64,000 bases of DNA from Polyangiales bacterium (GCA_044229975.1 JBGARZ010000002.1:800001-864000), one strand, 5' to 3'; numbered from the stretch's first letter, positions 1 through 43,001 are shown. A program made the numbers and translations. The notes: generated by a model from the sequence alone, not told the origin.

Positions 1-3726
<3,726 letters not shown>

Positions 3727-10294: not shown

Positions 10295-11461
10295 TCAAGC
10301 GGCGACGCGCGACGCGGCGGGCGCGGGGTCGCGGTAGACGGCGCACAGCCTGCTCATCACGGCCGACCACGTGTAGCGCTCGATGAGTCGACCGCGACCC
10401 ACGACGCCCAGCGTGCGACGCGCCTCGACGTCGAGGGCGAGCGCCTCGATGAGGGCGTCGCGCAGGGACGACACGTCACCCGCTTCGAAGCACCGACCCG
10501 CCCCGGTGCCGCGGACGAGATCGGACACCGCGCCGCCGTCGGGACCCACGACCAGCGCGCCGCACGCGATGGCCTCGGCGGTGGACAGCGAGAAGGTCTC
10601 CGAGCGGCTGGGCACCACGACCACGTCGCTCGACGCCAGCGTGCGTGCGACCGCAGCAGGCGAGGCCAGGTACGGCCGCACCGTGACGGCCGACCGTGTG
10701 CGGGCGAACTCCTCCAGGCGCGGACGCAGCGGGCCGTCGCCGACGAGGTCGAGGCGAGCGCCCGTCACGGCGTGGACGGCGTCGAAGGCGGCGAGGAGGA
10801 GGGGTAGCTCCTTGTCGGAGGTGAAGCGCCCCGAGTAGCAGATGACGGGCGCCGCGCCGTCCGGGCGCACACCGGCCGCGTCGGGAGTGAACACCTCGAC
10901 GTCGACCCCGAGGCCCACCTCACGAACGCGCGGGAAGCCACGACGGGTGAGCTCGCGCTCCATGGTGGGCGAGGCCACGAGCGTCGCGTCGTACCGCGAG
11001 TGCTGCCGACGGAAGAACGCCCACACCGCCTCGGCGAGGGTGTCTCCGACGTCCCGCACGGGGAGCGAGTGCGTGATGTTTTCGACGACCTGTCGGGGAT
11101 GACTGTGGAAGAAGCCCACCACCTTCGGCGGCCTCGGCAGACGCCGCACCTCGCGCAGCACGATGCCGGGCAGCGCGTAGTGGCTCGCGATCTCGATGAC
11201 GTCGGGCTGGAGCTCACGGATGAGCTCGCCAATGCCGGCGCGCGCGCCAAAGAGACGATAGGCGGGGTTTCCCGGCATCGGCGGACCGGGCAGGCGGTGC
11301 ATGGTGCCGTCGCCGAAGGGCTCGCGAGAGCGCGACGCGCCGGGAACGACGAAGTGGCACTCGACGCCCTCCCGCGGGAGCGCCGCGGCCTTCTCCAGGT
11401 AGTACCGCTTGATGCCGCCGCATGAGTCGGAGAACGCGCTCGTGATGTCGAGCACCCGCAT
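10295..11461 (-). CDS. Glycosyltransferase family 4 (GT-B)
   Basis: GGIKRY N-terminal loop, YSGRFTSDKE, VGDGP and PSRSETFSLSTAEA (EX7E) motifs. Confidence 0.9.
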   Translation of the reverse strand: MRVLDITSAFSDSCGGIKRYYLEKAAALPREGVECHFVVPGASRSREPFGDGTMHRLPGPPMPGNPAYRLFGARAGIGELIRELQPDVIEIASHYALPGIVLREVRRLPRPPKVVGFFHSHPRQVVENITHSLPVRDVGDTLAEAVWAFFRRQHSRYDATLVASPTMERELTRRGFPRVREVGLGVDVEVFTPDAAGVRPDGAAPVICYSGRFTSDKELPLLLAAFDAVHAVTGARLDLVGDGPLRPRLEEFARTRSAVTVRPYLASPAAVARTLASSDVVVVPSRSETFSLSTAEAIACGALVVGPDGGAVSDLVRGTGAGRCFEAGDVSSLRDALIEALALDVEARRTLGVVGRGRLIERYTWSAVMSRLCAVYRDPAPAASRVAA

Positions 11462-15339: not shown

Positions 15340-16545
15340 TTACCAACCCGCGACAAGCGACGCCATGCGATCGCGCTCGGCGTCGGGAATCTCTGGATAT
15401 ACAGGCAGAAACACCACCTCGGCGCGCCACGACTCGCACTGCGCGGCCCGCAGCGAAGGGCGCTCGACCGCGGTCTCGACGGCCGCGATGGTGCTCGTCC
15501 CGCGCGCCGCATCGAAGCCCGCCGCGCGGAGCGTACGCACCAGCGCATCGGGCGCGGCCACGCGAACCGCGAAGAGCCAATGGGTGCGATCGGGCATCGC
15601 CGACCCGAGCACCGGCACCCTGCCCCCAAGTGCAGCGATCATGTGCTCGCCCGCCGCACGTCGGCGCGCAATGCGCTCGGTTCGCTCGACCATGAGCTGC
15701 GCGTGCAGAGTCGCGCAGAGGGCATCGCACGGCCGCGCACGAATCGCATGGAGCAGTGCCTCGGGCGTCTCCGCCGGGAAGCCCTTGGTCACGCCCGTCA
15801 CCACCGCGTCGACGTCTCTCCCGGCAACGGCAAGCGTCCGCTCGAAGCCCCGATAGCGCCACGGGTCGCGCGGAACCACCAGCGCCAGGTATGTCGCCAG
15901 CTTGCGCGCGTAGCGCCTCGTCGACTGCGCGGGCCACGCGGCGATCACCTCCCGCATCCGTGACCGCAGCACAGTGTCTCGCACCCGCACGAGGCCGCCT
16001 CCGAGAGCCGTCGCCGTCTTGATCGACCCGAAGCTGTGCAGCACCACGTCGGCGCACGCGCTGCCCTCCAGGCGATGGGCGCCGGTGTAGCCCTGGGCGT
16101 CGTCGTCGACCACGACCATGCCCGCGCGGTGAGCGCGTTCGGCGAAGGCATCGAGCGGGGCTCGCGCGCCGAAGAGCTGCGCCATGACCAGCACCCGCGA
16201 ACGCGTCGTGATGGCTGCGTCGAGGGTCTCCAGCGACGGCGCCAGCGTCCCCGGCTCACAGTCGAGCGGAACCGGCACCAGCCCGTGCCCACGCACCACG
16301 CGAGCCATGTCGGGGATGGTCCAACCGGAGAGCAGCACCTCGTCGCCGGGCGCGAGCGCGAGCGCGGTGAGCAGCGCATCGAAGCCCGAGCGCGCGGAGA
16401 GCGTCGCGATGACTTCTCCCGCTGGAGACACGTGGTCTTCGAGCGAGCGCACTGCGTTGCGAGGTGGTCGCGCGGTGTAGCCGAGCGCGCGGACGAGGGC
16501 GGCGGGCTCGATGTCGATGCGGGCCCGCGGGTAGAGGGGGTTCAT
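15340..16545 (-). CDS. DegT/DnrJ/EryC1/StrS family PLP-dependent aminotransferase
   Basis: SARSGFDALL, PGDEVLL, VVVDDDAQG and SFGSIKTATALGGG (PLP Lys). The ATG overlaps the upstream stop (ATGA). Confidence 0.88.
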   Translation of the reverse strand: MNPLYPRARIDIEPAALVRALGYTARPPRNAVRSLEDHVSPAGEVIATLSARSGFDALLTALALAPGDEVLLSGWTIPDMARVVRGHGLVPVPLDCEPGTLAPSLETLDAAITTRSRVLVMAQLFGARAPLDAFAERAHRAGMVVVDDDAQGYTGAHRLEGSACADVVLHSFGSIKTATALGGGLVRVRDTVLRSRMREVIAAWPAQSTRRYARKLATYLALVVPRDPWRYRGFERTLAVAGRDVDAVVTGVTKGFPAETPEALLHAIRARPCDALCATLHAQLMVERTERIARRRAAGEHMIAALGGRVPVLGSAMPDRTHWLFAVRVAAPDALVRTLRAAGFDAARGTSTIAAVETAVERPSLRAAQCESWRAEVVFLPVYPEIPDAERDRMASLVAGW

Positions 16546-17336
16546 CGCCATCGATCGACTCCCCAGGCGACCACGACGCCGAGCGCGACGCCCGCGACGA
16601 CGTCCACCGCATAGTGCTGACGGAGGAGCATCGTCGAGATCGCGATGAGCACCGCGGTCGCCGCGCTCCAACCGGCGAGCAGGCGGCCGTCGTGGCGAAG
16701 ACGCCAGGCGGCGTGGAAGGCCATCGCGCAGTGGGTCGACGGGAGGCAGTTCACGATGGGGTCGCTCCCGCGGATGGAGTTGAGCGACCACGCGCCGAAG
16801 CTCCCTCCAGTGGCCGCCAGCGAGCGCGGAAACGACACCGGCACCGACAGCCACGCGACCACGCTGACGAGCACGATGAGCACGTGGCCGATGGTCACGC
16901 GGCGCAGCGCATCGTCACTGGTCGCTCGCACAAACGGGAGCGCGCTCAGCGGGTGCACGCCCAGGTAGAGCGGCGCCACCGCCGGGACGAAGGGCAGGCG
17001 CGCCGCGAGGCCCTCGGCGAGGACGTGCGCTCGCGACGGGTCGGTGCACGCCGCGACCGCGTAGTAGCTGCCCGCCCAGAGCAGCCACGCGAGCGGCGCG
17101 ACGATGGCGCCCCGCGCGTAGCCCGACCCTTGGACTGCCGCACGAAAGGCCCACGCACCGACCCATGCCGGGACGACGCCCAGCGCGAGCACCAACGTCA
17201 CCGCGGGCGACGGCCAACGGACACCGAGCAGCTCGCCGAGCGCGACCACCTGTCCACCCGCGACGAGCGCGACGAAGACGGCCGTGGCGGCGGAGCGGGC
17301 GCGGTCAGAGGAAGCGGCGGGTCCCGACGGTTCCAT
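16542..17336 (-). CDS. PAP2 superfamily membrane phosphatase/phosphotransferase (PAP2_3 / IPC-synthase-like)
   Basis: Multiple TM helices, NCLPSTH (PSxH) and QHYAVDVVAG (HxxxD). Start is uncertain. Confidence 0.8.
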   Translation of the reverse strand: MEPSGPAASSDRARSAATAVFVALVAGGQVVALGELLGVRWPSPAVTLVLALGVVPAWVGAWAFRAAVQGSGYARGAIVAPLAWLLWAGSYYAVAACTDPSRAHVLAEGLAARLPFVPAVAPLYLGVHPLSALPFVRATSDDALRRVTIGHVLIVLVSVVAWLSVPVSFPRSLAATGGSFGAWSLNSIRGSDPIVNCLPSTHCAMAFHAAWRLRHDGRLLAGWSAATAVLIAISTMLLRQHYAVDVVAGVALGVVVAWGVDRWR

Positions 17337-18267
17337 CGTGGGCGTGGTCGGCGCGGTGTTGGTAGGCGGGCGCGAGGAGGCTGTCGAGGCGCTCCATGAG
17401 GTCGTCGGTGGCGCGCTGGAGGGCGGGGCGATGGGCCTCCTCGTCGTCGGGATCGAAGGCGCGGAATCCAGCCGGAAGCGCCGAGAAGTCGGGTCGATAC
17501 GCTTCACCGAAGCGCACGTCGATGATGCCGCGGCGCGGGACGATGGACTGTCCGTGAAAGGCCTCGCGGCAACCGCTCATCCCCGCGGGCACGACCGGGA
17601 CGCCGAGCGCGTGGGCGAAGAGCATGGTGCCGATGCGACCCCGGCCGAGACGGCTGGCGACGGTTCCTTCGGGGTAGATCTGCACCGACCACCCGGCCGC
17701 GACGGACTCGCGCGCGAAGCGAAGCGCCTCCCCGAGCACCGCGCGATAGGCGTCGCGCCAGCAGTCGCGGAGGGTCGTTCGCGACGGGTCGAAGGGCAGC
17801 CCGAGCACGCTCCGCCGCCGCGACTGGAGCGCGTCGAAGAACGCCGTCGCCGGCAGCGCGTCGCCCCGGTCGAGGTGATCGCGGCACGCGCGGTACTCCT
17901 CCTCGGTGGGTCGCCGACCGGCGGTGCGCGCGGCGTCGACGAGGATCACGTACCCCCGCGACGCGAGCGGAATCACCCCGGTGCGCGCGAGCACGGGCTC
18001 CATGGCGCGCGAGTGATAGCTCTTGGCCTTGGTGACCGTGACCACGCGCTGCCCGATGCGCTCCATCGCCGACCTGAACGTCATGAAGTCGTACTTCTGC
18101 GTCGAGTTGGTCGCGTAGATGACGGGGCTCGCGGGCTGCGCAAACCCGTGGAGCACGACGCGCGCCCCACCGAGCGCCTCGGCCACCTGAAACGCCCCGG
18201 TGACGGCGGCCTCCCAGTGAGCTCGGGGCAGCACCCGATAGCGGGCGAAGTAGTCGAGGTCGAGCAT
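17305..18267 (-). CDS. Lysophospholipid acyltransferase (PlsC-like) family protein with His-to-Ser change in motif I
   Basis: PVIYATNSTQKYD (NHx4D position), IYPEGT, VPVVPAG and VRFGEAY motifs. Start re-picked at MLDLDYF. Confidence 0.8.
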   Translation of the reverse strand: MLDLDYFARYRVLPRAHWEAAVTGAFQVAEALGGARVVLHGFAQPASPVIYATNSTQKYDFMTFRSAMERIGQRVVTVTKAKSYHSRAMEPVLARTGVIPLASRGYVILVDAARTAGRRPTEEEYRACRDHLDRGDALPATAFFDALQSRRRSVLGLPFDPSRTTLRDCWRDAYRAVLGEALRFARESVAAGWSVQIYPEGTVASRLGRGRIGTMLFAHALGVPVVPAGMSGCREAFHGQSIVPRRGIIDVRFGEAYRPDFSALPAGFRAFDPDDEEAHRPALQRATDDLMERLDSLLAPAYQHRADHAHDGTVGTRRFL

Positions 18268-18366
18268 CGGCGGGGCGCGACTATCGCCCCGCGGAAGGGG
18301 GCCGCACAACGGGGCGTGGAGGGTGCGGCGCTCGCGGGCGTGTGGTAGGTGGCGGCGACAAGAGCG

Positions 18367-19104
18367 ATGGCCGACGCAGAGCAAGAGATCGACACCGACG
18401 CCGGGCGCATCCGCGCCAACCCCCTGCTCCATGAAATCTATCGGGACGTCTACGCGCGCATCCTCGACGCGGTGCCGCCGGAGCAGTTTCCGCGGCTGCT
18501 GGAGCTCGGCTCGGGCGGCGGCTTCTTCAGCGAGTTTGCGCCGCACACCATCACCAGCGAGTGCGTCCCGGTGCCGCGCGTCGATCGTGTGGTCGATGCG
18601 TGCAAGATCGACGAGCACTTCGAGCCTGCCTCGCTCGACGCCATCACGGCCTTCAACGTCTTCCACCACCTGCCCGACTGCGAGGGCTTCCTGCGCGGCG
18701 CGCAGACCGTCCTCCGCCCGGGCGGCCGCATCGTGCTCATCGAGCCGTGGTTCACGCCGCTGGGGCAGTGGTTCTACCGGGCGATCCACCACGAGCCCTC
18801 GCTCCTCGACCCCAACGACTGGAACATCTCCGGCGTCGGTCGCCTCGCGGGCGCCAACTCCCGCCTGCCCACCAGCGTCTTCCGCGACGGCGACGCCCGC
18901 TTCGCCCGCAGCTTCCCCGCCTTGCGCGTCGTGAGCCGCGAGCCCTTCCACAAGTGGCTCTACCTCTTCTCCGGGGGCCTCAAGCTCAACACCCGCATCC
19001 CCCGCCCCATCGCCCGCGCGCTGGTCGCGGCCGACCGCGCGGTGCACCCCGGAGACAACGCCGCGGGCCTGTTCGCGCGCATCGTCGTCGAGCGCCTTCC
19101 GTAG
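18367..19104 (+). CDS. Class I SAM-dependent methyltransferase
   Basis: LLELGSGGG, NVFHHL and LRPGGRIVLIEP motifs. Confidence 0.9.
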   Translation: MADAEQEIDTDAGRIRANPLLHEIYRDVYARILDAVPPEQFPRLLELGSGGGFFSEFAPHTITSECVPVPRVDRVVDACKIDEHFEPASLDAITAFNVFHHLPDCEGFLRGAQTVLRPGGRIVLIEPWFTPLGQWFYRAIHHEPSLLDPNDWNISGVGRLAGANSRLPTSVFRDGDARFARSFPALRVVSREPFHKWLYLFSGGLKLNTRIPRPIARALVAADRAVHPGDNAAGLFARIVVERLP

Positions 19105-19136
19105 TCCTTCCTTCCCACGAGAGAGCCGACACCACC

Positions 19137-19796
19137 ATGGCCGCTGAGATCACCCTCGACCTCGTCAAGCGCTTCCCCAGCAACGGTCCCACCGACCCCA
19201 TCCGGTACTACCGCAAGCCCCTCACCGGCTGGCTCTTCCGCGAGCGCATCAACCTCGGCCTCCGCATGCTGCGCGACCTGAAGTTCGATCGCGCCCTGGA
19301 GATCGGCTACGGGTCCGGCGCGGTGCAGGTCTCGCTGCACAGCGTCGCCAGGGAGGTGCACGGCATCGACCTCGACGCCGACCCGACGCTCGCCACACGG
19401 GTGCTCGACGCGCTCTCGCTGAAGTCCGAGCTGCGCCAGGGCTCGGTGTACGAGCTCCCCTACGAGGACGCGCACTTCGACCTCGTGGCGTCGTTCTCGA
19501 CCTTCGAGCACCTGCACGAGTTCGACAAGGCGCTCTCCGAGGTGGCCCGCGTGCTGCGGCCCGGCGGGCGTTTCCTCCTCGGCATGCCCGCGGTCAACAA
19601 GATGATGGAGATGTCCTTCCTGGCCATCGGGTTCAAGGGCATCGACGACCACCACGTCACGACCCCGCAGCAGGTGGCCGCGCGCTTCCACGCCCACGGC
19701 TTCATCGTCGACGACCAGGCCCGCCTCACGCTCCCCATCCCCACGGTGCCGGGCGCCACGGTCTACTACGACTGGCTCCTGCGCCGTACGCCCTGA
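19137..19796 (+). CDS. Class I SAM-dependent methyltransferase (type 11)
   Basis: ALEIGYGSG, LPYEDAHFDLV, TFEHL and EVARVLRPGG motifs. Start re-picked at MAAEITLD. Confidence 0.9.
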   Translation: MAAEITLDLVKRFPSNGPTDPIRYYRKPLTGWLFRERINLGLRMLRDLKFDRALEIGYGSGAVQVSLHSVAREVHGIDLDADPTLATRVLDALSLKSELRQGSVYELPYEDAHFDLVASFSTFEHLHEFDKALSEVARVLRPGGRFLLGMPAVNKMMEMSFLAIGFKGIDDHHVTTPQQVAARFHAHGFIVDDQARLTLPIPTVPGATVYYDWLLRRTP

Positions 19797-19858
19797 CCCC
19801 GCCGCTCCTCCCTCCGACCCGTCGCGGGGAACGACCCGTGCAGTGACGAAGCCCCACG

Positions 19859-22450
19859 ATGGTTGACCCTCCCCCCGCGCAGCTCTCCCTCATCGACCGC
19901 GTCCTCGTGTTCTTCGCGCGCCTCGGCGCCCGTCGCCCGCTGCGCGTGCTCCTCGCCACCTTCCTGGTGATCGCGCTCTCGGCCCTCGCCGCCGCGCACC
20001 TGGAGTTTCGCCAGGACTTCATCGAGCTGCTGCCCTCCGAGAGCGTCGGCGCGAGGCTCCTGCGCCGCGCGATGGCCCGCATGGGCGGCGGCAGCGCCAC
20101 CATGTTCGTGGTCGTCTCGTCGCCCGACGCCGACGCCAACCGTCGCATCGTCGACGCGCTCGAACCGCAGCTCCGCGCGCTCCCGTCCAACCTCGTGCGA
20201 ACCGTCGAGCACGGCCCCGAAGAGATCCGCCGCTTCTTCTGGCAGCGCCGCTGGCTCTACGCCGAGGTGGGCGACCTCGAAGAGATCTCGTGCGAGCTCC
20301 AACGCGCGCGCCGTCGGGCGCAGCCGGGCTTCGTCGACCTCGACGACGAGTCGTGCGCCGAGCTCCGCAGCGACCACGGCCACGAGCGCCCCGCGCCCAC
20401 CACCACGGCCAACGACCCACCACCCGAGCCCGAACCCGCCAACGCCTCGGCCGCCGCGCGCCCCTTCTACCGCTTCCGCACGCAGCTCCACGCCCGCTCG
20501 CGCGAGGTCGACCAATACCCCACCGGGTATTTCCGCAACCCCGAGGGCACCCTCTACGCCATCGTGCTGCGCTCGCCCGCCACGGGCACCGGCGACAGCA
20601 CCGGCGACCAGCTCATGACCCGCGTGACGGCGCTCGTGCGCGACGTGCACCCCGAGCGCTTCCACCCGCGCGCCGAGGTGGGCCTCGGCGGCGACATCCC
20701 CAGCGCCATCGCCGAACGTGACGCATTGAAGGAAGAGGCCATCAAGACCTCCGGGCTCGCGGTGGTGCTCATCCTCGGGTCCATCGTGGTGTTCTTCCGG
20801 TCGTTTTCGTCGCTCGCCCACATCGGGCTCGCGATGATCACGGGCGTCGGGCTCGCGTTCGCCGTCGCCTTCTTCGCCTTCGGCTACCTCAACGCGTCGA
20901 CGGCCTTCCTCGGCTCCATCATCGCCGGCAACGGCATCAACTACGGAATCATCTACCTCGCCCGCTACCGCGACCGCCGCGCGCTCGGCGACTCCATCGA
21001 GGAGGCCCTCGTCGACGCCGCCGTCACCTGCCGCCGCGGCACCCAGCTCGCGGCCCTCGCGGCCTCGTTCGCGTACGGCTCGCTGATGCTGACGTCGTTT
21101 CGCGGGTTCTCGCAGTTCGGCCTCATCGGCGGCGTCGGCATGATCTTCTGCTGGTGCGCCACGATGATCGTGGTGCCCGCCACGGTCACCGCCGTCGAGG
21201 GCCTCAAGGCGAAGCTCTTCCCCAACCGCGCCGCCCGCGTGTCGCGCGGCCCCACCCGCACACCCATCAGCGGCGCCATCGCGTGGGCCACCGGGCGCTT
21301 CCCGGTGCAGATCCTCGTGCTCGGCCTCGGGCTCGCGATCTTCTCGGCCGTCGCGCTGCCGAAGTACCTGCGCGACCCCTGGGAGTACAACTTCGCCAAC
21401 CTCGGATCGCGCGGCTCGCGCCACACCGGCGCCGACGCCTGGAGCAGCCGCGCCGGGCGCATCTTCGTCGGCCGCAGCAGCTCGCCCGACATCCTCCTGG
21501 CCGACCGCTTCGAGGACGTCATCGAGCTCTCCGACGCGCTCCTGCGCCGCGACCAGCAGCGCACCGGCGGCCGCTACATCGACCACATCGAGACCGCGTG
21601 GGACCGCCTCGGCGGACAGCCCGCCGCCGTCGCCCGCAAGCTCGAGATCCTGCGCGACATCCGCGCCGACATCGACGCGGTGCTGCCCGAGTTGAGCGGC
21701 GAAGACCTCGCGCTCGCCCGCGAGTGGCGCCCGCCCGAGGACCTCCACGCACCGCAGCCCGACGAGCTCCCGGCGCTGGTGCGCGCGCAGTACACCGAGC
21801 GTTCGGGGCGATTCGGAACGCCCGTGTTCGTCTACTACAAGCCGTGGTTCACGCCGAGCGACGGGCGCAAGCTCATCATCGTCGCCGACCTCACGCAAAA
21901 CGTCCGCCTCGCCGACGGTCGCACCGTGCCCACCGTGAGCCGCTCGACGGTCTTCGCCGAGATGGTTCGCGCCATGAGCACCGACGGCCCGCGCGCGACC
22001 TTCGCGGCCTTCCTCGTGGTGGTGTTCCATTCGCTGCTGGCGACGCGGCGCATCGGGCCGGCGGCCATGGTGCTGGGCGCCCTGCTGTCGGGCGTGCTCT
22101 ACACCGTCGGCGGCGCGGCCCACCTCGGGGTGCGCCTCAACTTCCTCAACTTCGTCGCGCTGCCCCTCACCTTTGGCATCGGCGTCGAGTACGCGATGAA
22201 CCTCTACGACCGCGTCGAGCACTACGGCGGCGATGTGGCCGAAGGCATCAAGTCCGTCGGAGGCGCTGTGACCCTCTGCTCGATGACCACCATCATCGGG
22301 TACGGCTCGCTGCTCGCGGCCGACAACCAGGCGCTGCAATCGTTCGGCTACCTCGCCGTCGCGGGCGAGCTGTCGTGCATCTGCACCGCGATGGTGCTGC
22401 TGCCCGCCGCCATGGTGCTCGCGCGCCGCCGCCGGGAGCGCAAGGCATGA
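19859..22450 (+). CDS. MMPL/RND superfamily lipid exporter
   Basis: Two repeats of TM + large loop + 5 TM. GNGINYGI and FGIGVEYA RND-type motifs, FRGFSQFG. Confidence 0.9.
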   Translation: MVDPPPAQLSLIDRVLVFFARLGARRPLRVLLATFLVIALSALAAAHLEFRQDFIELLPSESVGARLLRRAMARMGGGSATMFVVVSSPDADANRRIVDALEPQLRALPSNLVRTVEHGPEEIRRFFWQRRWLYAEVGDLEEISCELQRARRRAQPGFVDLDDESCAELRSDHGHERPAPTTTANDPPPEPEPANASAAARPFYRFRTQLHARSREVDQYPTGYFRNPEGTLYAIVLRSPATGTGDSTGDQLMTRVTALVRDVHPERFHPRAEVGLGGDIPSAIAERDALKEEAIKTSGLAVVLILGSIVVFFRSFSSLAHIGLAMITGVGLAFAVAFFAFGYLNASTAFLGSIIAGNGINYGIIYLARYRDRRALGDSIEEALVDAAVTCRRGTQLAALAASFAYGSLMLTSFRGFSQFGLIGGVGMIFCWCATMIVVPATVTAVEGLKAKLFPNRAARVSRGPTRTPISGAIAWATGRFPVQILVLGLGLAIFSAVALPKYLRDPWEYNFANLGSRGSRHTGADAWSSRAGRIFVGRSSSPDILLADRFEDVIELSDALLRRDQQRTGGRYIDHIETAWDRLGGQPAAVARKLEILRDIRADIDAVLPELSGEDLALAREWRPPEDLHAPQPDELPALVRAQYTERSGRFGTPVFVYYKPWFTPSDGRKLIIVADLTQNVRLADGRTVPTVSRSTVFAEMVRAMSTDGPRATFAAFLVVVFHSLLATRRIGPAAMVLGALLSGVLYTVGGAAHLGVRLNFLNFVALPLTFGIGVEYAMNLYDRVEHYGGDVAEGIKSVGGAVTLCSMTTIIGYGSLLAADNQALQSFGYLAVAGELSCICTAMVLLPAAMVLARRRRERKA

Positions 22451-23679
22451 GCGAGCCGCGGAAGGTTCTCTTCATCAACGACACGGCGCGCAACGGCGGG
22501 CCGGGCCGCAGCCTCCACGCGATCCTCAGCTTCGTCGACCCGGAGGTCATCCACCGCATGGTCATGCTCCCCCGCGAGGACGCCATCGCGCGGCTGCTGC
22601 GCGAGGCGCGCGTCGTGGACGAGCTCATCATCGAGCACGACCTCATCGAAAACGCGTGGCAGCCGATGGACCGCGCCGTCGAGCGCGCCGACCTCGACGC
22701 CCCGTGGTCGGTGCGCTTCCCCCGCCTCGCCCTCAACGTCGCGCGCATGGGTCGGCTCGCGTTCACGCTCCCTCGCTTGGTGCGCGAGCGCGGCGTCGAG
22801 CTCATCTACTGCAACGGAACCACCGCGGACTTCGTCGGCGGCGTCGTGGGCAACCTCACGCACACCCCGGTGCTCTGGCACGTGCGCTACACGTCCATCC
22901 CCGCCGCGAGCCGCCCGCTGCACAACGCGCTCGCGCGCAGCCGCAACCTGCGCCGCATCGTGTGCGTCTCCCACGCGTCGGCCGCGCTCTTCCCCGACCT
23001 CCCGCACAAGGTGCAGGTCGTCCACAACGCCGTCGACGTCGAGCGCTACCGCCGCGACGCCACCGCCGGATCGCTGCGCGGATCGCTCGTTCCGACCGAT
23101 GCGTTCATCTACGGGAGCATGGGACGCATCCTGCCGCGCAAGGGCTACCCCCACATGATCCGCGCGGCGAAGGCGCTCATCGACCGCTGCACCCCGGAGG
23201 AGAGACATCGTCCGCACTTCGTGGTGCTGGGCGATACGCCCGCCGACCTGCCGGGCGACCACCTCGCCGAGTGCCGCGCGCTCGTCGCGGAGTGTGGGTT
23301 GGAGGGGCGGTTCTTGTTCCCGGGGTTTACCGAGGATGTGAGGCCGTGGTTGCAGGACTTCGACGTGGTGGTGCTCCCGTCGGTGTACCCCGACCCGCTG
23401 CCGCGCACCGTCATCGAGGGCATGGCCTACGAGCGCCCCGTGGTGGCCTTCGACGTCGGTGGCGTCGGCGAGATGGTGCGCGACGGCGTGACGGGATCGC
23501 TGCTCCCACCGTCGCCCTCCACCGATGCCTTCGCCGACGCGATGCTCGCGTACCTGCGCGACCCCGAACGACTACGCCGCGAGGGACTCGCCGCGCGCGA
23601 GGCCGTCATCGAAGGCTTCAGCGGCAGCGCGCACGGCCGGGCGATCCAGGCGCAGATCGCGCTCGCGCTCGCTACCTGA
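22447..23679 (+). CDS. Glycosyltransferase family 4
   Basis: GGPGRS, GRILPRKG and PDPLPRTVIEGMA motifs. ATGA coupling with the MMPL stop. Confidence 0.9.
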   Translation: MSEPRKVLFINDTARNGGPGRSLHAILSFVDPEVIHRMVMLPREDAIARLLREARVVDELIIEHDLIENAWQPMDRAVERADLDAPWSVRFPRLALNVARMGRLAFTLPRLVRERGVELIYCNGTTADFVGGVVGNLTHTPVLWHVRYTSIPAASRPLHNALARSRNLRRIVCVSHASAALFPDLPHKVQVVHNAVDVERYRRDATAGSLRGSLVPTDAFIYGSMGRILPRKGYPHMIRAAKALIDRCTPEERHRPHFVVLGDTPADLPGDHLAECRALVAECGLEGRFLFPGFTEDVRPWLQDFDVVVLPSVYPDPLPRTVIEGMAYERPVVAFDVGGVGEMVRDGVTGSLLPPSPSTDAFADAMLAYLRDPERLRREGLAAREAVIEGFSGSAHGRAIQAQIALALAT

Positions 23680-24382
23680 AGAGCGAGCCGACGGTGTCGG
23701 TGGTGCGCCCCGCGGCCCACGCGAGCAGCGAGCGCGTCTCGTCGACCAGCATCGGGTGGTGCACGTCGGCCGGATGCAGCGCGATGCGAACGGACAACCC
23801 CGCCGACGGATACAGGCGACCGACCCGCGCGTAGGCCGCGCTGGAGAGCCGACGACCGAGCGTTCGGCTCGCGTAGTTGAGCGCCGGGCAGAGACGACGC
23901 GCGCCCGTCGAGGGCTGGTAGATGAAGAGCTGGTCCTCGCAGTAGTCGAGGCCACGCGAGCGCAGCGCAGGCAGCAGCCACGAGCGCCGCGCCCACGCGG
24001 GCGGGACGAAGCCGCGCATCGGCAGGCCGAGCTCGCGCAGCATCGAGGCGCCCGCGTCGAGCCACCCTTCGCCCACGTCGCGGTCGTAGCTGGCGAACTC
24101 GGCCTCGCCCGCGGAGACCACCCGCTGCGCGACGAAGTGACCGACGCCCGCGCCCGGCAGCGAGCGGTGGAAGTAGCCGTGGAGGAAGATCTCGTGCCCC
24201 TCGACGGAGAGCTCTCGGAGGAAGGACGCGTAGTCGGGGTGGTTGCGCAGCGGACCCTGCTGATGGAAGTCGGGAACCACCAGGAGCCCAGGCTTCACGC
24301 CCACCTCGCGGCACCAGCCGAGGGCGGTCTCGACCTCTGCGCGCCAGCGCGGCGACACGTCGTGGATGGACACGTGGATCAT
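23672..24382 (-). CDS. Polysaccharide deacetylase-like protein (DUF2334 type)
   Basis: VSIHDVSP, EIFLHGYFH, GFVPPAW and RIALHPAD motifs. Confidence 0.85.
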   Translation of the reverse strand: MIHVSIHDVSPRWRAEVETALGWCREVGVKPGLLVVPDFHQQGPLRNHPDYASFLRELSVEGHEIFLHGYFHRSLPGAGVGHFVAQRVVSAGEAEFASYDRDVGEGWLDAGASMLRELGLPMRGFVPPAWARRSWLLPALRSRGLDYCEDQLFIYQPSTGARRLCPALNYASRTLGRRLSSAAYARVGRLYPSAGLSVRIALHPADVHHPMLVDETRSLLAWAAGRTTDTVGSLFR

Positions 24383-25548
24383 CGCGGTGACCTCAAGGCG
24401 TCTTCGTAGATCATGAAGAGGTCATCGAAGTGCGAGCTCGCGGAGGGGATGAGCGCGGCCCTGGCCACCGCCCCCGCCGAGAGGGCGCCGGGTGGCTGAT
24501 GGAGTAGCCGCTTGATGGCCAGCGCGGCTTCCACCGGCGAGGCCGCCGGGTCGTAGGTCACGCCGCAGGTCTCGTCGACGAGCTCGCCGGCACCACCGGC
24601 CGAGGGGACCACCGCGGGGGTGCCAGAGGCGAGGGCCTCGGCCACGCTGAAGCCGAAGGTCTCGACGGCGCACCCGTGGATGAGGGCGTCGGCGCTGGCC
24701 AGCGTGCGGGCGTAGCGTTCACGGTCCGTGATGAAACCCGTGAACGTGACGCTCAGTCCGAGCGTGCGGGCGCGGGCTTCGAGGCGGGCGCGCTCGGGGC
24801 CGTCGCCCATCACGACCACCGCAACAGGAAGGGTCTTGGCCACCTCGGCGAGCGCGTCGAACACCAGCGCAGCCCGCTTTTCGAGGGCGAGTCGACCGAC
24901 CACCGCGACGAGCCGCGCCCTCGGATCGGACGCGTGCGGGCCCAGCAACGCTGCGCGCAGGGCCTCGTCCCGCAGCGAGGGCGAGAGGCTCGCGCGCTCG
25001 ATGCCGAAGGGCGCCTTGGCGACCCGCGGAACCCCCGCGACGCGGAGCTGCTCGGCCAGCCAGCAGGCGGAGACGATGGTTCGGTCGAAGCGCGAGGCCA
25101 TCGAACGCAGCCCCGCCCAGAGGGGTCGGAGGGCGAGGTCAGCACGGTTTGCCCCGAGCCAGCGGGAGAGAACGGGTCGTGCATAGCTCCCGATCTGATC
25201 GGAATGGAGCACCAGGGCACGCACCCCAACGTCTGGCTGAGTCGCGGCGATGAAGGCCGCGAGGTAGGGCGACGAGGCTTGCAGCACGTCGGGTCGCTCG
25301 TGGGCGATGAGGGCGCGCAGGGCTGGGACGTTCCAGAGGCAGTGGTAGCTGGGGTCGTAGGGCATCGCAGGGCCCTTCACGCGAACCAGCCTCCCACCGT
25401 GCACCGTCGTCTCCTCGGCGCGTGGCCCGGGTGCGACCACCACGACCTGATGGCCACGCGTTGTTCCCTCTCGGAGGAGCTGTGTTAGGTACGCGCGAAC
25501 GCCCCCGCCCCGCTCCGAGAAGAACTCCGTCAGGTCGAGAACCTTCAC
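24379..25548 (-). CDS. Glycosyltransferase family 4
   Basis: GTG start VKVLDLTEFFSERGGGVRAY, then VGRLALEK, GDGP and ETFGFSVAEALASG motifs. Confidence 0.9.
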   Translation of the reverse strand: MKVLDLTEFFSERGGGVRAYLTQLLREGTTRGHQVVVVAPGPRAEETTVHGGRLVRVKGPAMPYDPSYHCLWNVPALRALIAHERPDVLQASSPYLAAFIAATQPDVGVRALVLHSDQIGSYARPVLSRWLGANRADLALRPLWAGLRSMASRFDRTIVSACWLAEQLRVAGVPRVAKAPFGIERASLSPSLRDEALRAALLGPHASDPRARLVAVVGRLALEKRAALVFDALAEVAKTLPVAVVVMGDGPERARLEARARTLGLSVTFTGFITDRERYARTLASADALIHGCAVETFGFSVAEALASGTPAVVPSAGGAGELVDETCGVTYDPAASPVEAALAIKRLLHQPPGALSAGAVARAALIPSASSHFDDLFMIYEDALRSPR

Positions 25549-25600
25549 GGCGACCGCTTGTACCAGAGCCTTCGGGAATTGCTTCGGCAGGACACCACCT

Positions 25601-27067
25601 ATGAACGCACCCAGCACCCCTCGCCCCCGACCGCGCGCGGCGACCGCCCAGTGGCCCCGGCGCATCGCGATCCTGAGCGACTACGTCCGGCTGCCGTACG
25701 CCAACGGCGCCACCTTCGCGACGCAGTTTCTCTACCGCGAGCTCACCCGCCGCGGGCACGAGGTGACCGTCATCGGCCCGCGCGACCCCGACGCGAAGCC
25801 CGAAGACCTCCCCGAGCGGCACATCTGCCTGCCGAGCGTTCCGCTCAACAACCACCCCGGCGTGTACATCCCGCTCCCGCTCGAAGGCATCCTCCGCGAG
25901 AAGCGCGACTGGGATTTCGACGTGGTGCTCGGCCAGACCGCCACCGAGCTCATGGAGCTCGGCCTCTGGCTCCGCGCGACGCGAGGCATCCCCCTCGTGG
26001 CCGTCAACACGGTGCACCTCCCGAGCGTCTACCCCGTGGTGATGCCCGACTCGATGCAGGACTCGAAGACCGCCCACTGGCTCTTCCAGAAGTCCTTCCT
26101 GAAGCTCGCGGAGGGCACCTCGGCCAGCGCCTACAACGGCTGCGACGGCCTCGTGGTGCTCTCCAACGGCCTGAAGAACTACTGGGAAGAGCGCGGTGTC
26201 ACGACCCCCATCCACGTCGTGCCCCGCTGCGTGGAGCCCCGCATCTTCGACACCGCCCCCGGCGCTGACCCCTTCCCTCGCGGCTTCCGCAAGGGTGCCC
26301 GCCTCCTCGTCGTGTGCCGTCACACCCGCGAGAAGGCCGTCGAGCGCCTGCTCGAAATCTTCGCGCGCTACGTCGCCCCGGCCAACCCCGACGCGACGCT
26401 CACGCTCCTCGGTGACGGCCCCGACCACGACCTCTTCCGCCGCACCGCGGAGGAGCTCGGCATCCGCGAGAAGACCCACTTCCCCGGTGAGTTTCCGCTG
26501 GGCGCGCTGCCGACCTGGTATCACCACGCCGACCTCTTCACGTACACGTCCCTCTCGGAGACCTACGGCCAGGTCGTGAGCGAGGCCCTCTGGTCGGGCC
26601 TGCCAGTGGTCGCCTTCGCCGACGGCATGGGCGTCTCGCAGCAGGTCGAGCACGACCTCACCGGCCTGCTCGTCGAGCCCGGCCCCGACGCCGAGATGGC
26701 CGACTGGCGCTTCGCCCGCGCGGTGGTCTCGCTGCTGCGCAACCCGCGCCGTCGACAGGCGCTCGCCACGCAGGCCGCCGCTCGCGCGCACGATCGATCG
26801 GCGCCCCACAAGATGCTCGAAGGCTTCCTCGGTGCGTTCGAAGCGGCGCGCGCGCACCGCGACGCCCATCCCCCGGACATGAGCAGCCCGCGGCTCGCGA
26901 CGGCGTTTCATGGCGGCCGCTGGATGGCCATCAACAGCATCGTGTACGGCCTCGGCCACCTGAAGCCCCCGGCCGTCGTCAACCGCCACGGCCGTCGCCA
27001 GCCCGCCTGGAACGACCTCCCCGACGTCCCCGCCACCCGCCCCGCCGCGCACGCCCGCCTCGGCTGA
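25601..27067 (+). CDS. Glycosyltransferase family 4 (diacylglycerol glycosyltransferase-like)
   Basis: SDYVRLPYANGA, CRHTREKAV, GDGP and SETYGQVVSEAL motifs. Confidence 0.9.
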   Translation: MNAPSTPRPRPRAATAQWPRRIAILSDYVRLPYANGATFATQFLYRELTRRGHEVTVIGPRDPDAKPEDLPERHICLPSVPLNNHPGVYIPLPLEGILREKRDWDFDVVLGQTATELMELGLWLRATRGIPLVAVNTVHLPSVYPVVMPDSMQDSKTAHWLFQKSFLKLAEGTSASAYNGCDGLVVLSNGLKNYWEERGVTTPIHVVPRCVEPRIFDTAPGADPFPRGFRKGARLLVVCRHTREKAVERLLEIFARYVAPANPDATLTLLGDGPDHDLFRRTAEELGIREKTHFPGEFPLGALPTWYHHADLFTYTSLSETYGQVVSEALWSGLPVVAFADGMGVSQQVEHDLTGLLVEPGPDAEMADWRFARAVVSLLRNPRRRQALATQAAARAHDRSAPHKMLEGFLGAFEAARAHRDAHPPDMSSPRLATAFHGGRWMAINSIVYGLGHLKPPAVVNRHGRRQPAWNDLPDVPATRPAAHARLG

Positions 27068-27103
27068 ACTTCTCTCCCCGCGCGCTGCTAGTCTGCGCGC
27101 CCG

Positions 27104-28042
27104 ATGAAGCTCTGCGCCGTCTCCGTCGACCTCGACGAGGTCCCTTGCTACCACGCCATCCACGGGCTCCCGATGCCCGCCGACGACACCGCCCACGCGG
27201 TGTACATCCGCGCTGTCCCGCGCCTCGCCGAGCTCTTCGCCGACCTCCGCCTCCCCGCCACCTTCTTCGTCATCGGACGTGATCTCGACGCGCCCGTCGC
27301 GCTCGCGGCGGCCCGTGGTCTCGCGCGGTCGGGTCACGAGCTCGGCAACCACAGCCAGCACCATCGCTACGATCTGGTGCGCCTCTCCGCCGATGCGATG
27401 CGCGCCGAGGTGCGCGACGCCGCCGACGCCATCGCCCGCGCGCAGGGTCATCGCCCGGTGGGCTTCCGCGCGCCCGGCTACACCATCACCGACGCGCTCT
27501 TCGACGTGCTCGCCGCCGAGGGGGTCGCCTACGACAGCTCGGTGTTTCCGTGCCCCGCGTACTACGGCGCGAAGACAGCCATGATCGGCCTCATCGCCGC
27601 GCGCGGCCGCACCAGCCGCTCGGTGGTCGACACGCCCGCGGTGCTGCTCGCGCCCGCTGATCCGTACCTCCCGTCGCGCCCGTACTGGCGTCGCTCCGCC
27701 CATGGCGCCTCGCTCGTCGAGCTGCCCATCGGCGTCACGCGCGGCGCGCGGCTCCCCTTCATCGGCACCACGCTAGCGGGCCTCGGCCCCACCGGCAGTC
27801 GCCTGCTCGCGAAGCAGATGCTCGGTCGCCCGCTGGTGAACCTCGAACTGCACGGGCTCGACCTCCTCGACGCCCAGGACGGACTGCACCCGCTGGCCGA
27901 GCACCAGCCCGACCTGCGCGTCCCGGTGAGTCGGAAGAGCGCCGCGCTGCGCGCCGTGGTCGAGACCCTGCGAGACGACGGATATGAGTTCGTCACGCTG
28001 CGCGACGCGGCCGCGACCTTCGCTCACCGCCTCGCGGGCTGA
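27104..28042 (+). CDS. Polysaccharide deacetylase (NodB/CE4-like)
   Basis: SVDLDE, ATFFVIG, GHELGNHSQHH, GFRAPGY and YDSSVFP motifs. Confidence 0.9.
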   Translation: MKLCAVSVDLDEVPCYHAIHGLPMPADDTAHAVYIRAVPRLAELFADLRLPATFFVIGRDLDAPVALAAARGLARSGHELGNHSQHHRYDLVRLSADAMRAEVRDAADAIARAQGHRPVGFRAPGYTITDALFDVLAAEGVAYDSSVFPCPAYYGAKTAMIGLIAARGRTSRSVVDTPAVLLAPADPYLPSRPYWRRSAHGASLVELPIGVTRGARLPFIGTTLAGLGPTGSRLLAKQMLGRPLVNLELHGLDLLDAQDGLHPLAEHQPDLRVPVSRKSAALRAVVETLRDDGYEFVTLRDAAATFAHRLAG

Positions 28043-28335: not shown

Positions 28336-28686
28336 ATGGCGAAGGCAAAGGCACCGGCCAAGAAGGCCGGCAAGGGCGGAGCGAAGAAGTTGACCAAGGC
28401 CGGCCTGGTGCAGGCGCTTCAGGAGAGCATTGGGGACAGCGTCTCCAAGGCTCAGGTCAAGCAGGTTCTCGACGCTCTGACCAGCGTGGGTGAGAAGGAG
28501 CTCAAGAAGAGCAAGGTGTTCGTGCTCCCGGGCTTCGCGAAGTTCGTCGTCGCGGAGAAGCCGGGCCGCCCCGCCGGTGAGTTCCTCAACCCGTTCACCA
28601 AGAAGAACGAGCACCGCGACGCGAAGCCCGCGTCGAAGACCGTTCGCGCCCGGCCGATCAAGGCCCTCAAGGACGCGGTCAACTGA
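28336..28686 (+). CDS. hup: HU family histone-like DNA-binding protein
   Basis: Lys/Ala-rich N-terminus, LTKAGLV, FVLPGFAKF, NPFT and KPASKTVRARPIKALKDAV. Strong RBS. Confidence 0.92.
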   Translation: MAKAKAPAKKAGKGGAKKLTKAGLVQALQESIGDSVSKAQVKQVLDALTSVGEKELKKSKVFVLPGFAKFVVAEKPGRPAGEFLNPFTKKNEHRDAKPASKTVRARPIKALKDAVN

Positions 28687-28692
28687 GTCCCC

Positions 28693-28714
28693 CGACCAGC
28701 GTTCGCGCTGGTCG
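28693..28714 (+). terminator. Stem-loop after HU (terminator or 3' stabiliser)
   Basis: CGACCAGCG-TTCG-CGCTGGTCG, a 9-bp stem with a UUCG loop 6 nt after the stop. No immediate U tract. Confidence 0.5.
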
Positions 28715-28786
28715 ATGGCCTCCGTAGTTCTTCAAACACCCATCGAGCGACGTCGGTTGTCTGGTAGCTTCCTCCGGGAAGCTCAC

Positions 28787-29281
28787 ATGACACTCGAACG
28801 TCGCTCGATGCTATTTGGCGCTGCCCTGCTCGCGCTCGGCTGCTCCCGCCCGCAGCCCCCGCGCATCACGCCCCGCTCCGCGGAGGTCATCGGCGCCAAT
28901 AGTCAAGGCCTCGGGCTGCGCATCCACTGCGTCGCCCGAAACACCAACGGCTTCCCGTTGACGGTTCAACGGGTGTCCGTTCGCCTCACCCTCGCCAGCC
29001 GCGACCTCGGCGTCACCGAACTCCCCAGCGCGCTGCGGCTTCCCTCCAACGTCGATGTGCCGATGGACATCGAGGTCCGCGCGCCGTGGGGAGACCTCCC
29101 CGGCATCATCGCGGTCTCCCTCTTCAATGAGAATGTCCCCTATCGACTCGACGGCACGGCCCGCGTCGGCAGCCCCAGGCTCAACGTCGATGTGCCGTTT
29201 ACCCTGGAAAGCACCCTTCCCCGACGCGTTCTCACCGGGGCGGTCAGCAATTCCGCCCCGGGGTTGCCCCCCCTGCACTGA
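28787..29281 (+). CDS. LEA type 2 / WHy domain lipoprotein
   Basis: MTLERRSMLFGAALLALGC lipobox, NTNGFPL (NPN-like) and VPYRLDG motifs. Confidence 0.8.
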   Translation: MTLERRSMLFGAALLALGCSRPQPPRITPRSAEVIGANSQGLGLRIHCVARNTNGFPLTVQRVSVRLTLASRDLGVTELPSALRLPSNVDVPMDIEVRAPWGDLPGIIAVSLFNENVPYRLDGTARVGSPRLNVDVPFTLESTLPRRVLTGAVSNSAPGLPPLH

Positions 29282-29298
29282 AGTCCCTTCAAGGGACT
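29282..29298. terminator. Palindrome between convergent genes (possible bidirectional terminator)
   Basis: AGTCCCT-TCA-AGGGACT in the 24-nt gap between two stop codons. Confidence 0.35.
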
Positions 29299-29305
29299 CC
29301 GCGCG

Positions 29306-32300: not shown

Positions 32301-32389
32301 TGCGCATGGCGGGGAGCGACCCCGGGACCCTGTACCAGGAGGTCGCACCCGGGTGCGGACCCAATGATCAACTGCGACTTCGTCGGCAT
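29306..32389 (-). CDS. FHA-domain ABC transporter (ABCG-type NBD + ABC-2 permease, Rv1747-like)
   Basis: Three FHA-like segments, Walker A GPSGAGKTT, LSGGQRKR, FLDEPTSG, TIHQP and a C-terminal permease. Confidence 0.93.
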   Translation of the reverse strand: MPTKSQLIIGSAPGCDLLVQGPGVAPRHAQLMWRDGLWVQDLAQGRTEVDGRPLAPNESVQLAGFHARVMVGGAAVPLTSAEVSKLFLDRTALPPERPGVVVVGRDPGRSQVVVAHPTVSGTHLRVDLSTRTVTDLGSRSGTFDRNSQRLPANQPVPIDVAGGYSLGAVWIPSAVLMELAGAPSGQAVGAGPVPMTSQGPMGGQPNAGMSGGYSPMQSMQGAPASQGHNPMQSAQGHNPMQSVQGGPMSMPTPPPQQAQPQGGAHKTMFGSFDLSGGGKALAIIGRLPSCDIVLPYPQVSSRHTSVMRAPDGSIVVSDLGSTNGTYVNGQRLVPGQTVAVPPKTKVFIGPYAVVVDIQNNAITAYIEQENQFESANLVEIEALDLFLQVPDRDKPGTDKILLNKVTFKALPGDLIALMGPSGAGKTTLLTVLNGYLRPTSGEVRVNGESLYAIYDALRGSIGYVPQDDLLHPELTVKEAIGYSAKFRLPSDYSDEEIERRVQQTMKDLGLDHLANTIIGSPIKKVLSGGQRKRVNIALELVTDPALMFLDEPTSGLAADDTVALIDLLSNLAKRYGKTIIVTIHQPAKEEFEKFNLAFIMGFGGEPVYFGPSGKDSYEFFARYRGQPIDNPRDMFDQLKIREEAVVARGQFANKSEARLGAAREWRAEFYRPDNSVFRSMYSGKREPGKPGQSRPPTRSAVPLIRQFGLLLSRYAKIKSRDVSGLMIMLLQAPIIGGLLAAVFFDSPKLPNLWCQNQVLAMEAVVARTTQQMCALPQTRFVEVDDFKGAIFFLTVGSLWFGVSNAAREVVSEIAIYRRERMVNLSIFNYMMSKFVLLALLCVLQCTVLLTIVYFSLKLGHGTADAFLPMLGSMVLTSMSGVALGLVISTAVTSSEAAMALTPIALIPQVVLGGLLVPMTNKSWLKALMAIMPSRWSFEGVMSAERDTLVPSWRIQTCAPAGSNGVNVRGGLNYFDCAVEEISRTAERSGAWGFSTWDQPAFHNGVLFVMMLVFLIGMGVMLRRRDSV
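31656..31715 (-). repeat. 27-bp in-frame tandem repeat (2 copies plus partial) encoding QGHNPMQS(A/V)
   Basis: ccctgcaccgactgcatcgggttgtgc (31656-31682) versus ccctgcgccgactgcatcgggttgtgg (31683-31709). Confidence 0.85.
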
Positions 32390-42447: not shown

Positions 42448-42908
42448 CGACCGCCGTCGGGCAAGGCCGGAGCGCAGGGGCGCACGACCGCACCGCCGAG
42501 GAAGCGATCGAGCGTGGCGGCCTCACACCCGTCGATCGCGAAGGCACCGGCACCGGCGTGAGAGGCACCGGTGACGCGGGGCCAGGGTGATCCACGGGCC
42601 GCATCACCCGAGCGGGAGAGCGCGCGCACGAGGTCGAACTCGGACAGGAGCTCCGCGGAGGTTGGCGAGGTTGCGAGGTGGAAGGGCGCGGTGCCGCCGT
42701 GACAGCGGAGGTCGGCGCACCCGGCGCGGCGAAACATCGGGGCGACGGCCGTGACGTAGCTCGCGGCGTCGAGGGCGACCGTGGGCGGTGGTGGGGGTCG
42801 GTCGAGACGCCAGCGTGCGAAGGCGAGGCCCGCGAGCGCCGCCACGGCGAGAGCCAAGGGGACCTTCGGCGAGGGCAGGCGGTGGTCGTAGTGCGAGCGG
42901 CGCGGCAT
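42444..42908 (-). CDS. Membrane-anchored hypothetical protein with CX4CH motif (possible c-type cytochrome domain)
   Basis: Start MPRRSHYD, TM VPLALAVAALAGLAFA, CADLRCHGG and a distal HAG. Confidence 0.65.
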   Translation of the reverse strand: MPRRSHYDHRLPSPKVPLALAVAALAGLAFARWRLDRPPPPPTVALDAASYVTAVAPMFRRAGCADLRCHGGTAPFHLATSPTSAELLSEFDLVRALSRSGDAARGSPWPRVTGASHAGAGAFAIDGCEAATLDRFLGGAVVRPCAPALPDGGR

Positions 42909-43001
42909 CGGGACCGACGAGCGGTAGCAGACGAGGGGCGGTGGGGGCGAGCCCGGCGGCGCTTGTGGGCGCGACGAGGGAGGCGGTACGGTGCGTCGGC
43001 C

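Follow-up and report, generated by a model that had tools for sequence, protein, structure and literature searches.

An MMPL-centred gene module of Polyangiales that probably makes and exports a membrane glycolipid

What do the genes clustered around an MMPL transporter in the genome of a Polyangiales bacterium make, and what does the transporter carry? The locus occupies positions 15340-28042 of a 64,000-nucleotide stretch (GCA_044229975.1 JBGARZ010000002.1:800001-864000), here called the window, which corresponds to positions 800001-864000 of contig C38 in a host assembly of ~10 Mb that is 93% complete. An earlier reading of the sequence alone (the sequence-only reading) described eleven contiguous genes in four tightly coupled units and took them as one uncharacterised pathway for a methylated, amino-sugar-bearing lipid on a ceramide, diacylglycerol (DAG) or sterol/hopanoid core. 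Our analysis narrows the system to 18367-28042. Its core comprises an MMPL transporter with an HpnN-like fold, a DUF2334 deacetylase and three glycosyltransferases of family GT4; it is co-conserved across Polyangiales, including Sorangium, and very probably makes and exports a membrane glycolipid. From the genes alone, we consider evenly balanced the fuller proposal, in which the product of 18367-28042 is an amino-sugar glycolipid with an anchor that is probably of ceramide type, and is exported towards an outer membrane predicted to lack lipopolysaccharide (LPS).

Co-conservation was assessed in 80 loci, the best 80 of 390 confirmed relatives orthologous to the window MMPL (its clade A), with neighbours counted within 10 kb. 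The neighbour profiles were built partly from these same 80 loci; the profile scores are therefore not independent evidence, and the linkage itself is. The module genes, and one further gene outside the region first flagged, are as follows, with model scores given against their cut-offs:

19859..22450, plus strand: MMPL/RND lipid-type transporter of 863 aa, clade A, with an HpnN-like fold; core (Pfam MMPL, 6e-20)
25601..27067, plus strand: GT4c, 488 aa; core, member of a small distinct GT4 family, likely a lipid-priming transferase (in 33 of the 80 MMPL loci)
24379..25548, minus strand: GT4b, 389 aa; core, GpgS-like, likely an N-acetylhexosamine (HexNAc) transferase (NF053787, 140/480 bits; type in 35 of the 80 loci)
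23672..24382, minus strand: DUF2334 deacetylase, 236 aa; core but dispensable, GpgD-like (PF10096, 3e-23; NF053788, 121/280 bits; 17 of the 80 loci)
22447..23679, plus strand: GT4a, 410 aa; core in two families, likely adds a further sugar (Pfam GT4; 24 of the 80 loci)
27104..28042, plus strand: CE4 deacetylase, 312 aa; accessory (PF01522, 2e-15; 8 of the 80 loci)
18367..19104, plus strand: MT1, S-adenosylmethionine-dependent methyltransferase of 245 aa; accessory (Methyltransf_23, 1e-10; 7 of the 80 loci)
19137..19796, plus strand: MT2, S-adenosylmethionine-dependent methyltransferase of 219 aa; accessory (Methyltransf_11, 7e-20; 9 of the 80 loci)
10295..11461, minus strand: second GpgS-like GT4, 388 aa, outside the flagged region, likely part of the same system (NF053787, 163/480 bits; 424 bits against the GT4b profile)

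At least one of GT4a, GT4b, GT4c and DUF2334 accompanied the MMPL in 49 of the 80 clade-A loci and in 31 of the 43 full-length ones, and the linkage stood at 38/69 after removal of six same-genus and five of the six Sorangium loci. The 33 loci with GT4c displayed 13 different gene orders. Among 20 hand-picked loci of other MMPL proteins, none carried GT4a, GT4b or GT4c, and DUF2334 was present in one, a locus chosen in the knowledge that DUF2334 lay nearby. The idea of an MMPL-centred glycolipid module with glycosyltransferase-plus-deacetylase logic is thus borne out for the core. The two methyltransferases and CE4 are family-level add-ons, and with MT1 in 7 and MT2 in 9 of the loci, methylation is not supported as a general feature.

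The MMPL orthologs came from Polyangiales, Myxococcales, Sorangium and Labilithrix records. Within the host family, GT4c was found in 16 of 18 MMPL carriers and in none of six non-carriers, and every one of the 16 GT4c carriers had the MMPL; genomes G014 and G020, in which CE4 lies directly 3' of the MMPL, have no GT4c. Across 151 genomes of the phylum, GT4c occurred in 34, DUF2334 in 19 and GT4b in 16. GT4c was also present in 17 of the 19 DUF2334 carriers and 15 of the 16 GT4b carriers, and it lay on the same contig within ~2 kb in 15 and 13 of them, respectively (adjacency read by hand from coordinates). All six Sorangium loci have the arrangement GT4c-MMPL-GT4b. A 1.8 Mb genome, G127, keeps MMPL, GT4b, GT4c, DUF2334 and a serine palmitoyltransferase (SPT)-like cluster; LpxC, LpxB and INO1 were not found in it.

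The gene description of the sequence-only reading held up well. Eleven open reading frames occupy 15340-28042 in the strand and order first given, and Pfam assigned them as Acyltransferase, PAP2/PAP2_3, DegT, two methyltransferases, MMPL, three GT4, DUF2334 and Polysacc_deac_1. Distances within the four units range from -32 to +62 nt, with the GT4a start overlapping the MMPL stop codon, and third-position GC content of the eleven genes lies between 0.84 and 0.97, the genome median being 0.92. By Pfam, none of the eleven proteins has a Wzx/Wzy, Wzm/Wzt, polyketide synthase (PKS) or nonribosomal peptide synthetase domain, as had been stated, and with no flippase/polymerase pair or Wzm/Wzt in the locus it does not have the make-up of a Wzx/Wzy- or ABC-type exopolysaccharide or LPS cluster; MurJ/Wzx-type genes do flank some relatives' loci. 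Every NCBIfam match of the locus proteins fell below its cut-off, the top ones being GpgS (GT4b), GpgD (DUF2334) and HpnN (MMPL). The description as uncharacterised therefore stands in that no named pathway scored above cut-off, and is weakened in that GT4b-DUF2334 resembles the published GpgS-GpgD pair (PMC12713373). A promoter and terminator scan of the locus returned chance-level matches only, and no longer forms of MT1 were found, which is weak evidence.

The GT4 at 10295-11461, missed by the sequence-only reading, belongs to the GT4b subfamily and lies beyond purQ and purL, adjoining a MATE gene; its ortholog abuts the MMPL in G012. The MATE transporter (8757-10205) stays beside purQ even in a relative that lacks this GT4, which makes it a doubtful part of the module.

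GT4c appears to be the priming enzyme. It has a GT-B fold, and its EX7E motif (E320, E328), R240 and K245 are invariant in 17 orthologs. A profile search of 1.84 billion proteins delimited the family as 11 near-full-length clusters above 450 bits; below that score came fragments and then full-length outsiders near 200 bits, leaving a score gap. Ten of the 12 outsiders scanned best matched monoglucosyl-DAG synthase (Mgs), all below cut-off. GT4c itself scored 43/400 bits on the Mgs model NF049988, and the kinship runs only through intermediate proteins (141-204 bits). The Atlas places it near GT4 clusters from Bacillota, Spirochaetota and Deinococcota, and one family member is annotated at source as 1,2-diacylglycerol 3-alpha-glucosyltransferase. 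GT4c is likely a lipid-priming transferase. Since a ceramide galactosyltransferase clusters among the monoglucosyl-DAG synthases (PMC9692976), this kinship speaks for a role of GT4c in lipid priming and not for any one lipid. Searches of PDB and NCBIfam with the GT4c and GT4b profiles gave generic GT4 matches only, BshA leading, and helix amphipathy of GT4c gave no informative signal. Two apparent GT4c fusions (P0124, P0129) were treated as miscalled starts, as the extra N-terminus has no domain and resembles opposite-strand sequence of the neighbouring gene. In three genomes of family f17 (L132, L133, L141), a UDP-glucose dehydrogenase and an epimerase lie directly 3' of GT4c, a hint of a uronic-acid donor.

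GT4b, likely a HexNAc transferase, is followed directly by DUF2334 with a 4 nt overlap. Apart from one marginal segment in GT4b, these enzymes show no clear membrane helix, DUF2334 having none; this would fit activity in the cytoplasm, which the published account proposes for GpgS and GpgD (PMC12713373).

The structure model of the MMPL (pLDDT 81.6) had HpnN (5khn) as its top Foldseek match, with a TM-score of 0.68 and 18% identity, followed by MmpL4/5. Against family models it scored 178/752 (HpnN), 119/1100 and 105/1400 bits (BstA), far below the cut-offs. Transmembrane helix 4 of MmpL3 and HpnN carries an Asp-Tyr pair; the corresponding residues of the window MMPL are NGINY. HpnN and BstA, lipid-exporting members of the MmpL family in diderms (PDB 5khn; PMC11713862), share its fold and are its best sequence and structure matches, but identity is low, the host has no detected cyclase, and no BstB/BstC-like neighbour was noticed at the locus. 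A FastTree tree of 90 MMPL frames (loci of at least 12 kb, frames of at least 650 residues, midpoint root, no support values examined), in which the window MMPL is represented by 84-87% identical orthologs, splits into clade A, a clade B linked to inositol genes and, further away, clade C. Clade C (~25% identity) also adjoins GT4c or DUF2334; its loci were located via GT4c, so it shows recurrence and not frequency. Neighbours of the 20 other MMPL loci included INO1 (4), CDP-alcohol phosphotransferase (6, plus 2 of another cluster), Aur1-type PAP2 (3) and a lyase-like gene dependent on pyridoxal phosphate (PLP) (2). Clade B MMPL genes (L193, L194, L197, L198, L202, L204, L205, L211) lie with INO1, CDP-alcohol phosphotransferase, Aur1-type PAP2, PgpA, a class III aminotransferase and an oxidoreductase, a neighbourhood that likely serves inositol phospholipid synthesis and export.

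Genes elsewhere in the genome bear on which lipid would receive the sugars. The SPT candidate is an oxoamine synthase in an ACP-ACP-KS-KS cluster (acyl carrier proteins and ketosynthases) on contig C35, additional to KBL- and BioF-like genes. All 25 same-order genomes had a match to it, with identity of at least 64% in 22; in Labilithrix and G127 the cluster also contains an acyl-AMP ligase. G143 combines MMPL-GT4b-GT4c in one locus with an acyl-AMP ligase (FAAL), an ACP and a 2170-residue KS-AT-KR-DH-oxoamine synthase. On these genes, we see the chances that the anchor is ceramide-type as about equal either way. Co-occurrence with SPT or triterpene cyclase genes, to which the sequence-only reading had looked, held for the SPT-like gene in the same-order genomes and failed in family f28, where three of three genomes examined had no SPT-like gene, and for the cyclase, found in one of 18 MMPL carriers.

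Some neighbouring observations concern the same enzymes. At L187:4139-12825 and L188:9238-19899, an acyl-AMP ligase and an ACP occur together with a PKS whose last domain is an oxoamine synthase, and G073 also has a CMAS-type methyltransferase and a desaturase there; such loci look suited to making long-chain bases that are methylated and unsaturated. A Labilithrix CE4 ortholog (57%; L158:2904-3824) lies ~5.5 kb from the SPT-like cluster. An NTP-transferase fusion on contig C11 was considered as SPT and rejected as HisC-like; on that contig of G000 (L125:5215-11618), INO1, MFS, CDP-alcohol phosphotransferase, NTP-transferase and NTP-transferase/HisC-like fusion genes form one cluster.

The host outer membrane is predicted to lack LPS. 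LpxC was present in 4 of 41 relatives and was not found in the host, nor was LpxB; LpxC was found in none of four Sorangium genomes, and LptF/G exceeded its cut-off in none of five genomes, the host and one Sorangium among them. Sphingolipids dominate the outer membrane of Sorangium. That of Sorangium cellulosum So ce56 is reportedly LPS-free, a finding credited to Keck et al. in 2011. Sorangium resembles the host in having GT4c-MMPL-GT4b and no LpxC (4/4), and differs in that DUF2334 was not found (2/2). Across the phylum, roughly half of the 151 Myxococcota genomes yielded neither LpxC nor LpxB, family by family (f1, f9, f25, f28, f35, f40). No hopanoid or sterol cyclase was found in the host or in eight same-genus genomes. 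PF13243 matched the genome only once, at 41 bits, in a repeat of an unrelated protein, and the sterol or hopanoid core was rejected. Cyclases were present in all six host-family genomes without this MMPL and in one of the 18 with it; this near-exclusive distribution (G001-G024) could stem from two different envelope strategies, or from nothing more than a split into two clades.

We propose the following scheme. An ACP-linked SPT-like enzyme encoded elsewhere in the genome would supply a long-chain base, and GT4c, working on the cytoplasmic side, would attach the first alpha-linked sugar to the lipid, a sugar that may be a hexuronic acid where UDP-glucose dehydrogenase and epimerase genes follow GT4c. 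GT4b would then transfer HexNAc, as GpgS and HexS do, and DUF2334 would take off the acetyl group to leave a cationic amine. In the host family, GT4a, the second GpgS-like GT4, CE4 and the two methyltransferases would decorate the head group, and the MMPL would flip or extract the lipid in place of GpgF, HexF or Lpt.

By its predicted steps, the module works like two described systems, GpgSDF and UgtA plus HexSDF, and is a member of neither; likewise its transporter is HpnN-folded but not HpnN. GpgSDF, the glucosaminyl-phosphatidylglycerol pathway of Pseudomonas aeruginosa (PMC12713373), also has an adjacent GT4 and deacetylase without membrane helices, and its models are those that GT4b and DUF2334 match best. 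It differs in that GT4b, DUF2334 and the upstream GT4 score far below those models (see the list above), and in that our locus has no gpgF, contains an MMPL and two further GT4s, and belongs to a host without detected lipid A genes. UgtA plus HexSDF of Clostridioides difficile (PMC11898633, PMC10128005), described as yielding aminohexosyl-hexosyl-diradylglycerol (PMC11898633), likewise combines a priming transferase, HexNAc transfer, deacetylation and a transporter, but the host is monoderm, the transporter is a flippase, and the likeness drawn here is one of pathway logic. The bacterial glycosphingolipid synthases Sgt1/Sgt2, Cer-GlcAT and BF9343_3149 are GT4s reported to glycosylate ceramide, some in hosts without LPS (PMC13318209, PMC9692976), and BF9343_3149 clusters with Mgs enzymes (PMC9692976); their comparison with GT4c is by published description. 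For Caulobacter, sphingolipid export via a second Lpt set has been proposed (PMC11324152), and no such set was found in the host. In the mostly open-access literature covered, we found no work on this MMPL-GT4-DUF2334 module and no genes assigned to the LPS-free envelope lipids of Sorangium.

Several observations weigh against the scheme. Kin genomes and loci were counted together and are not independent, and 31 of the 80 clade-A loci had no core neighbour (12 of the 43 full-length ones; some lie on short contigs). In family f28, 11 of 12 genomes carry GT4c; DUF2334 lies beside GT4c in this family and GT4b was in none of the 12, while DUF2334 was not found in two of two Sorangium genomes, which have GT4b, or in G001. 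As DUF2334 occurs without GT4b in the one and GT4b without DUF2334 in the other, neither the order of steps nor the free amine is universal. The SPT-like protein scored 317/640 bits, close to the KBL-like genes of f28 on the same model (304-326), and its best PDB match, an SPT (9e-68), leads 8-amino-7-oxononanoate synthase/KBL (2.5e-65) by a small margin. Despite carrying the module, f28 has only KBL-, BioF- and HemA-like genes, the SPT-like gene being absent from three of three genomes examined, and a motif search for ceramide synthase gave no match in the host. Seven GpgF-type flippase genes (PF03706) lie elsewhere in the host genome, none of them in the locus, and could do the flipping. LpxC is retained in 8 of 34 GT4c carriers, and the wholly LpxC-negative families f25 and f35 also lack GT4c; the module is therefore not a one-for-one substitute for LPS, and that strict version was rejected.

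The remaining genes of the cluster form the left unit:

17305..18267, minus strand: PlsC-like acyltransferase, 320 aa; separate insertion (PF01553, 9e-6, a weak match)
16542..17336, minus strand: PAP2 membrane protein, ~264 aa (start approximate); separate insertion (PAP2, 5e-7)
15340..16551, minus strand: DegT-like PLP enzyme of a lipid-linked subfamily, 403 aa; separate insertion (Pfam DegT, residues 42-202 only)

This unit is a separate module inserted upstream, and its acyltransferase-DegT pair is an independent module. All three genes are missing at this site in five of five same-genus loci that extend past MT1. DNA similarity to four of the five ends near 15150 and restarts near 18320, and in three of the five the site is filled by other genes. 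No clustering protein for any of the three occurs at the 80 MMPL-ortholog loci. The left unit and the MMPL side diverge head to head across a 99 nt gap, an adjacency that is real in this assembly but not conserved. Elsewhere, the acyltransferase was present in 18 of 41 genomes; among the 13 relative loci retrieved, 10 had DegT directly after it, on contigs other than that of the MMPL. PAP2 separated the two genes in none of these ten pairs, only in the present genome among those examined, and was found in none of five relatives by a search that had no positive control. Co-conservation thus holds for the core, in its 13 gene orders, and fails for the left unit.

The DegT-like enzyme had been read as an amino-sugar source. 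Its PLP residues D150 and K178 are invariant across 18 sequences, but the DegT match covers residues 42-202 only, the best NCBIfam score was 64/631 bits, and among its relatives the fusion partners or neighbours are acyltransferase and glycerol-3-phosphate oxidase genes, not nucleotide-sugar genes. Six of 120 listed homologs are fused to a PlsC domain and two longer ones to an FAD-binding domain; among 80 partly redundant metagenome loci, 12 had a glycerol-3-phosphate oxidase-like gene as its neighbour and 10 a PlsC-type domain. These lipid-type fusions and neighbours leave the amino-sugar role unsupported, and we infer that the enzyme may transaminate dihydroxyacetone phosphate (DHAP) or acyl-DHAP to form a serinol-type lipid backbone. 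The acyltransferase has Ser in place of the His of HX4D (NSTQKYD here, NHTxxxD in distant relatives), a replacement of the catalytic residue that the close acyltransferases share. The pair or fusion recurs (15340-18267; L162-L171; P0063; L231, L232) and is a candidate serinol-type aminolipid pathway.

How else might the core be read? A glycerolipid product is possible, though on balance we doubt it: GT4c would make monoglycosyl-DAG (or ether-DAG), GT4b and DUF2334 would convert it to aminohexosyl-hexosyl-diradylglycerol, and the MMPL would export that. The nearest named relatives of GT4c act on DAG, as the source name of one family member also says, f28 has the module without an SPT-like gene, and C. 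difficile offers a precedent in UgtA plus HexSD (PMC11898633). Yet the Mgs-like group includes a ceramide galactosyltransferase (PMC9692976), the module of G143 is physically linked to a PKS-oxoamine synthase, and the SPT-like gene accompanies every same-order genome. A lipid related to glycosylphosphatidylinositol or glycosylinositol phosphoceramide, in which GT4c or GT4b would put GlcNAc on an inositol phospholipid, DUF2334 would deacetylate it and GT32/GT22 enzymes would extend it, seems improbable. INO1, CDP-alcohol phosphotransferase and NTP-transferase genes do cluster in the host genome, an inositol cluster adjoins MMPL-CE4 in G014 and G020, and GT22 and GT32 genes lie beside the MMPL in 5 and 6 of the 80 loci; but the inositol genes neighbour the paralogous clade B, INO1 was not found in G127, which does have the module, and G014 and G020 lack GT4c.

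We find it distinctly improbable that GT4b-DUF2334 makes glucosaminyl-phosphatidylglycerol and merely lies beside an MMPL-GT4c pair making a different lipid. The best NCBIfam matches point that way, as does the standing of GT4b-DUF2334 as a separate transcription unit that is missing from two of six same-genus loci, but both scores are below half of the cut-off, gpgF is not beside the pair, and GT4b and DUF2334 each accompany GT4c even without the other. Hardly credible, and largely refuted by gene distribution, is the original version in which a single methylated amino-sugar lipid, perhaps with a sterol or hopanoid core, is the joint product of all eleven genes: the divergent head-to-head layout, the lipid-type family of every gene and the HpnN-like fold fit it, but the left unit is absent from the 80 loci, acyltransferase-DegT occurs in G017 and G024 without this MMPL, and cyclases concentrate in the MMPL-negative family members.

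The module would give MMPL transporters a further substrate class and define an unnamed GT4 family. According to PMC11324152, the route by which sphingolipids get to the outer membrane of bacteria is unknown; the module points to a transporter and two or three transferases in cultured Sorangium genomes, which makes sphingolipid delivery a testable question. More tentatively, and rather against the balance of chances, Myxococcota lineages without lipid A and Lpt may fill their outer leaflet with glycosphingolipids delivered by dedicated MMPL transporters, clade A carrying amino-sugar glycolipids and its sister clade inositol phospholipids, by an Lpt-independent route resembling that of mycobacteria.

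Other genes of the window include, 3' of the locus at 28646-32389, a LEA_2 protein and an FHA-domain ABC transporter, found in the genus only. A DnaE whose intein contains a LAGLIDADG domain occupies 1-3726, and a further acyltransferase followed by an NAD-dependent glycerol-3-phosphate dehydrogenase lies at 42678-45535.

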